In this document: piece by piece, positions 4,755 through 6,398 of the stretch
Layout: each line of letters opens with the position of its first letter
Position numbering within the stretch: position 1 is the stretch's first letter
DNA from: Deinococcota bacterium
GTDB taxonomy: Bacteria; Deinococcota; Deinococci; Deinococcales; Trueperaceae
DNA length: 28,488 bases
Direction: 5' to 3'
Assembly (NCBI GenBank): GCA_039025155.1
Contig: JBCCOX010000001.1
Location: forward strand, 1 to 28,488
Translations under genes and position numbers: made by a program
Notes under the pieces: model-generated
Databases searched by the model: none
What the model was told of the DNA's origin: nothing
What the model saw: the letters and a program-made list of their open reading frames with translations, nothing else

Positions 4755-5933
4755 CTAACCTTCGCACACTACCCTCTCAAACATCCGCTTACTCATGACC
4801 CGCTGCCCGCCATAGTCCCGCCGCAACTCATCAAACCCACGCTGAGCAAGGACACTCCACAAATAAGCATCTGGATTCTTGAGGGTGTGTGGGGCGCTGT
4901 AAACCTCGTCTGCCAGGGTAATCGTTTGCTTTAACAGCTCAAACCCCAAGCGAGTCCCCCCAATCATGTCCGCTTTAACCGCAATCCAAATCGCTTCTAA
5001 GTAGCGGTTACGTACACTTTCGACAATCTCACCTTGCTGGGTAATGAGCCAGGGTGCAAGTTTGCTCGCTAGGTAGATGGCAGTGCTCTGGACGTCCGCC
5101 CGTAAGGCGTCTACAGCGTGTGTTTGACGCATGTCGGGATATATATAGTATTGCTGATTAATAAGGTTGCTGTCGCGGGAGGTATTGGAGGGTAACACGT
5201 ACACTAAGTCAAAAGCTTTGGATATGTCTTTAGACGATTTATCTATCCCGACATCTGTAAGTGAGGCTAGTGTGGCGCGGTTGTGTTGGGTTTTGCCAGC
5301 GTGCCTATCCAGCTCGAGATCACGCCAGTGGTGGCGCATGACATCCCCTTCAACACGCACTTGCTGACCGTCGAGGGGCCGTAAAAAAACCCGGAAGACG
5401 GTACCGCCAATGACTGGACCTTGGCTTTCGCCAGTGCTGTAGTTGATAAGGGTATCGGTATACCAGAGCCTTGCACCGATGACACTGCGGACGGCGTGGG
5501 CATGAGTGGCTGTACTACTAAGCCAGCGTTCGATAGTACGGCGGGTGTAGGGTAGGTCGCGACCAACGGCTCGAGCCGCTAAGACTGCCAGTGTCTCATA
5601 GGTCATAAACAGGTAGAAGCTATTGCAGGAAACATCATCATCTGGCTGATGACCGTGCTCGAGGGCGGCGCAGGTAAGTGCCAAAACTGCTGGATAGGCG
5701 TTGCCCAAGCTCACCCTCCGAGCTTCCAGCAAGGTACGAGCTTGCTCAAGCGCATCGGCGTAACAAGGTGGTTCAGGTGGTTGGGGCGTTGGGGCAGGTT
5801 GTGGGGGGGTATCTGGTAGTACAGGTGTGCTGGTTATGCCATTTTCATAGTCAGCTAGCCAGCGATCGGCAAATGAGATGCCTTTGTACTTAAGGATTGT
5901 TTCATACACGAGTTGCTGGCCCGAGGTAGTCAT
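4755..5933 (-). CDS. Deinococcus/Thermus-type plasmid replication initiator
   Basis: GGTVFRVFLRP...HHWRDLELDRHAGKT resembles the recalled 'GT.W.V.LRP...HPWRDL..D...G' motif of Deinococcus-Thermus plasmid Reps. RRTIERWL is HTH-like. Confidence 0.65.
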   Translation of the reverse strand: MTTSGQQLVYETILKYKGISFADRWLADYENGITSTPVLPDTPPQPAPTPQPPEPPCYADALEQARTLLEARRVSLGNAYPAVLALTCAALEHGHQPDDDVSCNSFYLFMTYETLAVLAARAVGRDLPYTRRTIERWLSSTATHAHAVRSVIGARLWYTDTLINYSTGESQGPVIGGTVFRVFLRPLDGQQVRVEGDVMRHHWRDLELDRHAGKTQHNRATLASLTDVGIDKSSKDISKAFDLVYVLPSNTSRDSNLINQQYYIYPDMRQTHAVDALRADVQSTAIYLASKLAPWLITQQGEIVESVRNRYLEAIWIAVKADMIGGTRLGFELLKQTITLADEVYSAPHTLKNPDAYLWSVLAQRGFDELRRDYGGQRVMSKRMFERVVCEG

Positions 5934-6091
5934 GCGGGTTGCCTCGAGCCAGCAGCAGACGTGCGGGTTTGATTGTTGGTGACAGGAAAATGCTCTCTAA
6001 GATGGTGCGCGTTTAAGCAACGTGATGCAGGCTGTCCCTGCGGGTGGAATTGGTAACACTCGACCAATAACACCCATAACTGAGTCGTCAT
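5930..6091 (-). CDS. 53-aa leader ORF coupled to rep (MTTQLWVLLVECYQFHPQGQ...GSRQPA)
   Basis: Translated by hand. GGAAGGA RBS lies upstream of the ATG and its TGA overlaps the rep ATG (ATGA). It is below the ORF-track length cutoff. Confidence 0.55.
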   Translation of the reverse strand: MTTQLWVLLVECYQFHPQGQPASRCLNAHHLREHFPVTNNQTRTSAAGSRQPA

Positions 6092-6094
6092 CCC

Positions 6095-6123
6095 TTGTAT
6101 CCTTCCGGGTTAGGGAGTAAACT
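6095..6123 (+). promoter_or_regulatory. Putative antisense-RNA promoter
   Basis: TTGTAT-17 bp-TAAACT, overlapping the leader-ORF RBS on the opposite strand. Confidence 0.45.
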
Positions 6124-6129
6124 CAAGTT

Positions 6130-6312
6130 GGTCTCGAGTGGTCTTCTGAAACTTTGGCCGGTTAGCAGAAGTACTCGGTGGTGGGTGAGTTTAGATCCCT
6201 CTCTTTAGATATCCTTATTCTTTAGATTGGGTCCCTTACCTTGATATATTTTTTGAAGGTTACAACCTTCGCACTTGCCTCGTACGTGCTTGCATGTACG
6301 GGGCATTCTTTT
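6130..6312 (+). ncRNA. Putative counter-transcribed (antisense) RNA of about 180 nt against the rep leader
   Basis: Bounded by a promoter (6095-6123) and an intrinsic terminator (6276-6312). Contains hairpins at 6135-6177 (loop TTTGGCCG) and 6255-6270. Confidence 0.45.
6276..6312 (+). terminator. Intrinsic terminator
   Basis: TGCCTCGTACGTGC-TT-GCATGTACGGGGCA (14-bp stem, two G:U pairs) followed by TTCTTTT. Confidence 0.6.
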
Positions 6313-6369
6313 GTGAGAGGGCTAATGGTTTCGGGCCATTTGTCAGCAAATTGTCAGAATTCATACGAC

Positions 6370-6398
6370 ATTATGGCCATGTTGGTTATGTTTGTCAA
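6370..6398 (-). promoter_or_regulatory. Sigma70-type promoter for leader ORF and rep
   Basis: TTGACA-17 bp-CATAAT on the minus strand, near consensus. Confidence 0.65.

Follow-up and report, generated by a model that had tools for sequence, protein, structure and literature searches.

The 28.5-kb contig JBCCOX010000001.1 of a Deinococcota bacterium (Trueperaceae; assembly GCA_039025155.1), analysed here over its whole length and called the window, belongs to a 5.0 Mb genome in 766 contigs and encodes a putative replication initiator, Rep, whose upstream region is the subject of this work. The rep gene is read from the minus strand, and its mRNA would start near position 6363, just downstream of a near-consensus promoter, giving a leader of about 270 nucleotides (nt) and then a short open reading frame (ORF) whose stop codon overlaps the rep start codon. 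On the opposite strand, a promoter-like site, a series of hairpins and an intrinsic terminator predict an RNA that is complementary to this leader. A first-pass annotation, made from the sequence and its ORFs, had proposed an antisense RNA and leader-peptide switch at this place, and the elements that it assigned to the rep mRNA are all found there, namely the consensus promoter of the minus strand and the 53-amino-acid ORF with a ribosome-binding site (RBS) and a stop overlapping the rep ATG. The interpretation put forward here is that antisense-RNA control of leader-coupled rep translation probably operates at this locus, in a manner analogous, and not homologous, to that of plasmids R1 and ColIb-P9. 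The cassette would best be explained as the module by which a plasmid-type replicon of a Deinococcota bacterium controls its copy number.

Homologous loci were gathered via protein searches, contig look-ups, one genome scan and one metagenome scan. They comprise seven full distinct cassettes (the window, L010, L002, L049, L052, L005 and L060, the last on a long-read contig) and two truncated ones (L001 and L003), which makes nine loci for the counts that concern the leader ORF. The Rep proteins of the cassette relatives are 64–91% identical to that of the window, and all cassettes come from a single genus of Deinococcota, uncultured and of marine or saline origin. The first-pass annotation would have been contradicted by a layout that is not conserved in homologs; instead, the seven cassettes keep the target hairpin SL-I, the terminator, the leader ORF, its ATGA or GTGA overlap with rep and the site of the antisense promoter. 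The mRNA promoter is kept in six of the seven, as TTGACA-17/18-CATAAT at an equal distance from rep in L010, L002, L049, L052 and L060, and is absent in L005. Conservation is highest on the control elements, the target hairpin and the terminator standing above the rep coding DNA. Between the window and the L002 clade, identity amounts to 75–77% from SL-I to the leader start, 68–74% in the terminator, mostly 67–68% in the rep coding DNA (55% against L052), 48–52% in the body of the leader ORF and 40–42% in the spacer. A covariance model of SL-I and SL-II, the hairpin at the leader start, finds one match per genome, always at rep and only in this genus (4 of 128 genomes of the family). A search of positions 5500-6900 against Rfam with cmscan, on both strands and with E values up to 10, gave six chance-level matches (TarA, ar15, miRNAs and others) and no plasmid copy-control RNA. 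The coordinates of the features are collected in Table 1.

Table 1. Features of the rep control region, with positions in the window unless another locus is named (SD, Shine–Dalgarno sequence)
Feature	Position	Strand	Basis
rep, 392 aa, putative replication initiator with winged-helix domain	4755..5933	minus	phrog, tblastn, structure matches
Structure III, 12-bp stem GCUGGCUCGAGG / CCUCGGGCCAGC, predicted to sequester rep SD (GAGG, 5945-5942) and distal site; rep AUG and leader UGA in loop	5915..5953	minus	folding
Leader ORF, 53 codons, TGA overlapping rep ATG as ATGA (5933-5930)	5930..6091	minus	ORF list, homolog comparison
Candidate distal pseudoknot partner CUGGCU, directly 5' of rep SD	5947..5952	minus	loop complementarity
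SL-II, UGAGUU (6125-6120) x GACUCA (6086-6081), enclosing leader SD (6106-6100) and AUG (6091-6089)	6081..6125	minus	RNAalifold consensus
Putative antisense promoter TTGTAT-17-TAAACT, inferred start near 6130	6095..6123	plus	7/12 matches and conserved position
Predicted antisense RNA, ~183 nt, fully complementary to rep leader upstream of leader ORF	6130..6315	plus	folding, homologs
SL-I, target hairpin on mRNA and 5' hairpin of antisense RNA; antisense hexaloop UUGGCC (6154-6159), mRNA loop CCGGCCAAAG	6135..6177	both	folding, homologs
Apical part of SL-I, inverted in L010 relative to window	6149-6165; L010 1707-1724		sequence comparison
Variable middle hairpin, long, imperfect, with three TTTAGAT repeats (6190-6228)	6178..6247	plus	RNAfold
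Hairpin 3, UGAAGGU-UACA-ACCUUCG	6254..6271	plus	RNAfold
Intrinsic terminator, 13-bp stem (6276-6305) followed by TTCTTTTGTG, CUUG loop, U-tract	6276..6315	plus	scanner, folding
rep mRNA promoter TTGACA-17-CATAAT	6370..6398	minus	11/12 consensus matches

The leader ORF is preceded by the SD GGAAGGA, 8 nt ahead of its AUG. Eight loci have a leader ORF of 53 codons and L060 one of 51, and in all nine the stop overlaps the rep start, as ATGA or, in L049 and L052, as GTGA. The eight 53-codon copies are free of indels, in which the neighbouring non-coding spacer is rich. The encoded peptides are 11–17% identical between the two clades, with ratios of nonsynonymous to synonymous substitution rates (dN/dS) of 0.3–0.9, and match no Pfam or NCBIfam family. 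A frame that is kept while its peptide diverges fits a frame that needs to be translated and whose product is of little importance. The GTGA overlap means that L049 and L052 start rep with GTG, a weak start; ColIb-P9 also has a GUG rep start, which makes its rep dependent on coupling (PMC4705826). The rep SD is predicted to be closed by Structure III, its probability of being unpaired being 0.01–0.31 in six of six folded homologs, and in the L002 clade the SD, GGGGG or GGAGG, pairs with CCUCC of rep codons 2–3. A short leader ORF overlapping the rep start and a rep RBS closed by predicted secondary structure are thus both present, as in the functional class of antisense/leader-peptide coupling. 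At the other end of the ORF, SL-II is predicted to enclose the leader SD and start codon; its support is thermodynamic and does not come from covariation, because its pairs are all invariant or changed on one side only.

On the plus strand, the −35 TTG of the putative antisense promoter is the complement of the CAA directly upstream of the leader AUG. The first-pass annotation of a plus-strand promoter at 6095-6123 holds in part: the sequence is there, and in seven of seven cassettes the site recurs as TTG[T/A/C]A[T/A]-17/18-TA[A/G]ACT with its position kept, but the promoter scanner calls it in L049 and L005 (9/12) and not in the window. It is credible because it is conserved in the homologs. 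Folding of the plus strand from 6125 to 6315 with RNAfold gives four hairpins with −60.8 kcal/mol and a z-score of −3.26, none of 200 shuffles being equally stable, and recovers the three hairpins and the terminator that had been annotated there. The antisense RNAs predicted in the homologs measure 138–183 nt and share the order of SL-I, a variable middle and the terminator. The length of the middle hairpin varies: there is a 17-nt deletion in L010 and further deletions in X3 (a contig from a public sequencing run), and the L002 clade has a short GGGGUCUAAUCCC hairpin here. The position of hairpin 3 is filled with three unrelated stem sequences (one in the window clade, one in L002 and one in L049, L052 and L005) and is empty in L060. 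This hairpin and the terminator were compared by per-sequence folds, as the alignment A5 misregisters the inner terminator stem and hairpin 3. As a separate observation, the GGGGUCUAAUCCC hairpin, the second of the antisense strand in the L002 clade, is followed by a U-rich run and called as terminator-like by the scanner (L049 224-239, L052 1027-1048, L005 2732-2753), and that clade may in addition produce a shorter antisense RNA, about 75 nt long.

The terminator is kept in all seven cassettes, with 11–13 pairs in the plus orientation. Its U.G pairs become A.C mismatches on the mRNA strand, and the predicted energies are −18 to −22 kcal/mol on the plus strand and −11 to −14 kcal/mol on the other. 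The U-tract is found on the plus strand only, and only in this orientation is the stem fully or almost fully paired. Two substitutions that separate the window from L010 or X3 (6285 C>T and 6295 T>C) are one-sided and turn a C-G pair into U.G and a G.U pair into G-C, so that the plus-strand stem stays perfect. Among the ORFs of the window, there is no plus-strand gene ending near the terminator that it could serve. The rule of the scanner is loose, shuffled sequences yielding one terminator-like match per kb, and this terminator is far above the minimum and conserved. These features of its sequence assign the terminator to the plus strand. A conserved promoter-like site and a strong terminator, the elements of a countertranscript in the coupling class, are present in seven of seven cassettes, the transcript itself being a prediction. 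Folding energies had also been considered as proof of which strand is the antisense one. In six folded homologs the plus strand is the more stable (−49 to −60 versus −40 to −47 kcal/mol) and has more G.U pairs (5–9 versus 1–3). This excess is partly compositional, because the mRNA strand of 6125-6315 folds with a z-score of −3.37; shuffled versions of the G+U-rich strand shift to the same extent. The argument from energy is weakened accordingly, and that from the terminator is kept.

SL-I is the hairpin through which the two RNAs would recognize each other. Its stems are invariant in six of six sequences and, like those of SL-II, palindromic. Its mRNA loop occurs as GGCCAA, CGCCAA or GACCAA, and is inverted in L010 and in the contigs X2, X3 and X4. 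The YUNR U-turn that had been noticed in the first hairpin is there, in the hexaloop of the antisense strand, which reads UUGGCG or UUGGUC in homologs; in the flipped variants a YUNR motif stands on the mRNA strand. Such loops are known in either partner, sense or antisense (PMC4485353). ColIb-P9 has GGCG in the target loop, and CGCC both in the Inc RNA and ahead of the SD of rep (PMC4705826), and the caveat of the first-pass annotation that the loop polarity is reversed in comparison with that plasmid is correct for the window. In L010, the Rep of which is about 90% identical to that of the window, the apical part of SL-I is inverted, its core ACCGGCCAAAGTT being flipped between the arms CTTCTG and CAGAAG. 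The same flipped loop is found in contigs of three other public runs (X2, X3 and X4), which belong to two further studies, one of a marine metagenome (2016) and one of a microbial mat (2018). Outside the flip, one of these contigs shares about 98% identity with the window across 601 bases. The unflipped form is that of the window, of its source run X1 and of the outgroup clades. Both polarities therefore occur naturally, which settles the caveat. The predicted energy of loop–loop pairing is −27.6 to −30.4 kcal/mol for cognate partners and −12.5 and −8.9 kcal/mol for the window against flipped partners, a drop of 15–20 kcal/mol. These modelled energies fit a role of SL-I as the specificity determinant, and the loop inversion may be a one-step switch of specificity. 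A limited search of the literature found no paper using the term 'loop inversion' in such a context.

From the sequence elements, their conservation, the predicted folds and the overlap of the two genes, we infer that both RNAs are made, that rep translation is coupled to that of the leader and that the antisense RNA represses it. The proposed model is that the near-consensus promoter would give a rep mRNA with a structured leader of about 270 nt, in which the rep SD would be locked in a hairpin. Rep would be made mainly when a ribosome translating the leader ORF arrives at the UGA that overlaps the rep AUG, melts the hairpin and re-initiates. A convergent, constitutive RNA of about 140–180 nt, the complement of that part of the leader which precedes the leader ORF, would bring the UUGG (YUNR) loop of its 5' hairpin into a kissing contact with the complementary target loop of SL-I. 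Binding would reduce the translation of both leader and rep, whether by blocking an activating long-range contact, by a block near the leader start or by cleavage of the duplex. As the antisense RNA would rise with the number of plasmid copies, the supply of Rep would fall as copies rise.

Two other routes of repression were considered and discarded. In the first, a structural relay, binding of the antisense RNA would close the leader RBS via alternative pairings of ACUCG, UGAGU and GACUCA; it was dropped, as constraint folding gave no consistent change. The second, transcription attenuation, was rejected because the mRNA strand has no hairpin terminator with a U-run between the target and rep. 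The activating long-range contact could be a pseudoknot between the mRNA loop of SL-I and a distal site that lies 13–15 nt ahead of the rep start and can pair with it. The site reads UUGGCG in L049, a perfect fit to its own loop; UUGGUG in L002 and L003, with one G.U pair (the loop of L003 itself lies outside its contig); UUUGGUUG in L005, giving 8 bp; CUGGCU in the window clade, giving 5 bp; and UUGGC in L052 and L060, with a mismatch opposite an A (A x C). A helix of 5–8 bp is thus found at the same position in five of seven cassettes, and shuffled loops match in 5–34% of trials, which makes the match not significant. A pseudoknot of the ColIb-P9 type is possible on these complementarities, and is put forward tentatively.

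Several observations weigh against the preferred reading of antisense control over a coupled rep. The cassettes represent about three independent lineages in total, all within one genus, and the stems of SL-I and SL-II never vary, so that covariation for them is zero. With 7 of 12 matches the antisense promoter is weak in the window, and the overlapping leader RBS and SL-II could equally explain its conservation. The greater stability of the plus strand is largely compositional, that strand being G+U-rich, and the z-scores are near −3.3 on both strands. With a start near 6130, the region complementary to the antisense RNA would be separated from the leader SD by a gap of about 23 nt, and in constraint folding, when that region is made unavailable, the accessibility of the leader RBS is unchanged. 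The support for the pseudoknot is weak, with shuffled-loop fractions of 0.05–0.34 and mismatches in L052 and L060. The assignment of Rep is based on remote homology and context, and that of the contig as plasmid-like on its gene content.

The gap of about 23 nt and the unchanged accessibility in the models would fit an antisense RNA that is real and does not act via leader coupling. Such an RNA could work through duplex cleavage of the RNase III type, for which 140–180 bp would be a good substrate, or through interference between convergent promoters, and the 53-codon frame would then be incidental or a feature of mRNA stability. The preservation of frame, length and ATGA/GTGA overlap in nine loci despite the drift of the peptide points instead to coupling, as does the sequestered rep SD of all folded homologs, and this explanation is considered unlikely. 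Slightly less probable still is that there is no antisense RNA, and that the hairpins are a cis structure of the rep mRNA leader, serving stability, Rep autoregulation or protein binding, with the plus-strand motifs as by-products. The equal z-score of the minus strand, the palindromic and invariant stems of SL-I and SL-II and the weak promoter of the window agree with it, but a 5' hairpin of an mRNA leader needs no U-run on the opposite strand, and here the U-tract and the G.U-dependent perfect stem exist in the plus orientation only, in seven of seven cassettes, in which the promoter-like hexamers also hold their spacing of 17–18 nt.

An improbable alternative is that the 53-codon ORF is no mere leader and its product is a small protein with a function of its own, translated together with Rep; such a protein would be compatible with antisense control. 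The dN/dS values below 1, a stretch resembling RxVDTxKHVPxAK that members of the L002 clade share, and the upstream ORFs of phages and other contigs that overlap the rep start with ATGA (P23-77 ORF37, IN93 ORF35, L046 and L061) speak for a protein; the low identity of the peptides between clades and their lack of a Pfam or NCBIfam match speak against it, and an RNA stem is predicted at the place of the shared stretch. A type I toxin–antitoxin system of the hok/sok kind, in which a small toxic peptide is under antisense repression, would share the small ORF and a convergent antisense RNA with a YUNR loop, but is most improbable, the peptides having no membrane-spanning stretch and being hydrophilic in the L002 clade, the ORF being fused to the rep start at every locus and the element being found only with rep.

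The assignment of the gene that would be controlled is reasonable: it can be called a Deinococcota-type rep, as the first-pass annotation did, because of remote homology and genomic context. Its close relatives are in metagenome-assembled genomes of Deinococcota, and the protein matches phrog_30283 (E 1.6e-14, residues 113-371). In tblastn it resembles the replication proteins of the Thermus phages P23-77 and Tsatsa and ORF1 of IN93, with 26–27% identity over 75–80% of the protein and E values of 1e-8 to 2e-9. The GenBank note to IN93 ORF1 describes it as similar to the repA gene of a Thermus plasmid (accession Y10694). Pfam and NCBIfam hold no family for the 392-aa Rep, none of 24 aligned homologs matching a Rep family. 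The AlphaFold model (mean predicted local distance difference test score, pLDDT, 78.7) contains a winged helix at residues 65-190 as its sole recognized domain. VIA-align gives generic winged-helix matches with Z of 4–5, including winged-helix domains of Orc/Cdc6 and a staphylococcal plasmid initiator, and Foldseek against PDB and AFDB clusters gives no fold match. A tblastn search of a plasmid database with Rep and two distant homologs returned zero matches, and a scan of viral contigs none.

With similarity over most of the protein, Rep belongs to the family of Thermus plasmid pMY1 RepA and phage IN93 ORF1 (phrog_30283), in which P23-77 ORF1 is also found; the relationship is remote, and the phage genes differ in having a longer upstream ORF annotated as a hypothetical protein. 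The overlap with an upstream ORF is shared. In the Rep homologs of P23-77 and IN93 (L055 238-244; L054 20-26) and of the metagenome contigs L046 and L061 (both 2501-2504), an ATGA start overlaps an upstream ORF of 78-146 aa (ORF37 of P23-77, ORF35 of IN93, 146 aa in L046 and 120 aa in L061). Translational coupling therefore seems to be old, or ancestral, in this Rep family. By the loci compared, the short leader and the antisense cassette are, unlike this wider coupling, specific to one genus. Distant Rep homologs occur in 33 of 364 Deinococcota genomes. One of them, L048, is 41% identical and lacks both the leader ORF and the ATGA overlap; it has five iteron-like direct repeats of the TAACGTTA type upstream (about 2170-2230 of the locus) and PIN and ParA genes downstream. 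A second rep copy, about 85% identical and split into three frames, lies on contig C132 of genome G000 (7875-8559; L015), with an unrelated upstream region that holds a tRNA-like sequence reading as tRNA-Ala (TGC), and looks like a decayed, possibly integrated one.

The closest functional analogues are, on the arrangement of their elements, ColIb-P9 and IncB, with R1 next, and the cassette is not homologous to either family. In ColIb-P9 (IncI-alpha), IncB, IncK and IncL/M, where Inc RNA, repY and a repZ pseudoknot form the switch, the leader ORF likewise ends at the rep start, the rep SD lies in a hairpin and the gene of the antisense RNA precedes the leader ORF (PMC4705826). The ColIb-P9 group also shares the target loop of the UUGGCG/CGCCAA type, which L002 and L049 have as exactly CGCCAA/UUGGCG, a complementary tetramer or hexamer directly 5' of the rep SD (UUGGCG in L049) and, in some members, a GUG rep start. 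The differences from ColIb-P9 are an unrelated Rep family, the absence of an Rfam match here, the reversed polarity of the window, whose mRNA loop carries CCAA and whose antisense loop carries UUGG, and a pseudoknot that here is without statistical support. The sizes also differ: repY has about 29 codons and Inc RNA about 70 nt with one hairpin, whereas the leader here has 53 codons and the antisense RNA 140–180 nt with three or four hairpins, its 5' end falling short of the leader SD. Neither an IncFII_repA-type Rep nor a curated Rfam antisense RNA, which would mark membership in the IncFII/IncI complex by homology, is found here. It is possible, if rather doubtful, that with this cassette a ColIb-P9-like switch evolved independently in Deinococcota, in which the UUGGCG/CGCCAA loop was re-invented and the apical inversion is a natural one-step origin of a new incompatibility specificity.

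In R1 (IncFII), CopA targets a leader hairpin upstream of tap through a YUNR kissing loop, and translation of tap is needed for that of repA. The likeness is a predicted antisense target hairpin with a YUNR loop upstream of a short ORF. The two differ in Rep family and in phylum, neither a CopB-like repressor nor a second promoter was recognized in the cassette, and the leader ORF and antisense RNA are longer here. The duplex of R1 abuts the tap ribosome-binding site, whereas the cassette leaves a gap of about 23 nt between the duplex end and the leader SD. RNAIII of pIP501 and RNAI of pT181, which drive transcription attenuation, are antisense RNAs that exceed 100 nt, have several hairpins and are complementary to the leader of rep; the RNA predicted here is likewise a complementary one of more than 100 nt with several hairpins, and differs in that no U-run terminator stands on the mRNA strand between target and rep. 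Limited literature searches found no paper on antisense control of plasmid rep genes in Thermus or Deinococcus or on such control in the pMY1/IN93-type Rep family.

The surroundings of the cassette include further features. Two tandem 11-nt repeats, GCCATTTGTCA and GCAAATTGTCA, lie at 6335-6356, directly downstream of the inferred start of the rep mRNA. They read TGACAA on the mRNA strand, the hexamer core of the −35 element TTGACAAAC (6393-6398), and similar extra copies of TTGACA/TGACAA occur in L010, L002, L049, L052 and L060. An operator or an iteron-like site may be formed by these repeats. Between the phd/vapC operon and the rep promoter, a block at 6470-6530 (AGTGTAACTCGAGG ... ACACATGAAA) is kept across both clades while the flanking DNA is not, and could be the promoter/operator of the toxin–antitoxin operon or an origin element. 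The contig also encodes Phd/VapC, a MazF-like toxin, an ArdC-like gene and a STAND NTPase, and from Phd/VapC, the MazF-like toxin and ArdC its gene content looks plasmid-like.

The control of plasmid replication in Deinococcus-Thermus is little documented, and the cassette is a sequence-defined candidate copy-control module that would be useful for the design of vectors for Deinococcota. If the proposed control is true, the logic of a leader peptide, a sequestered start and a kissing-loop antisense RNA arose outside the enterobacterial IncF/IncI plasmids, and the recurrence of the same loop hexamer suggests strong physical constraints on fast RNA–RNA pairing. The natural flip of the loop would then be a simple possible route by which sibling plasmids escape each other's control.

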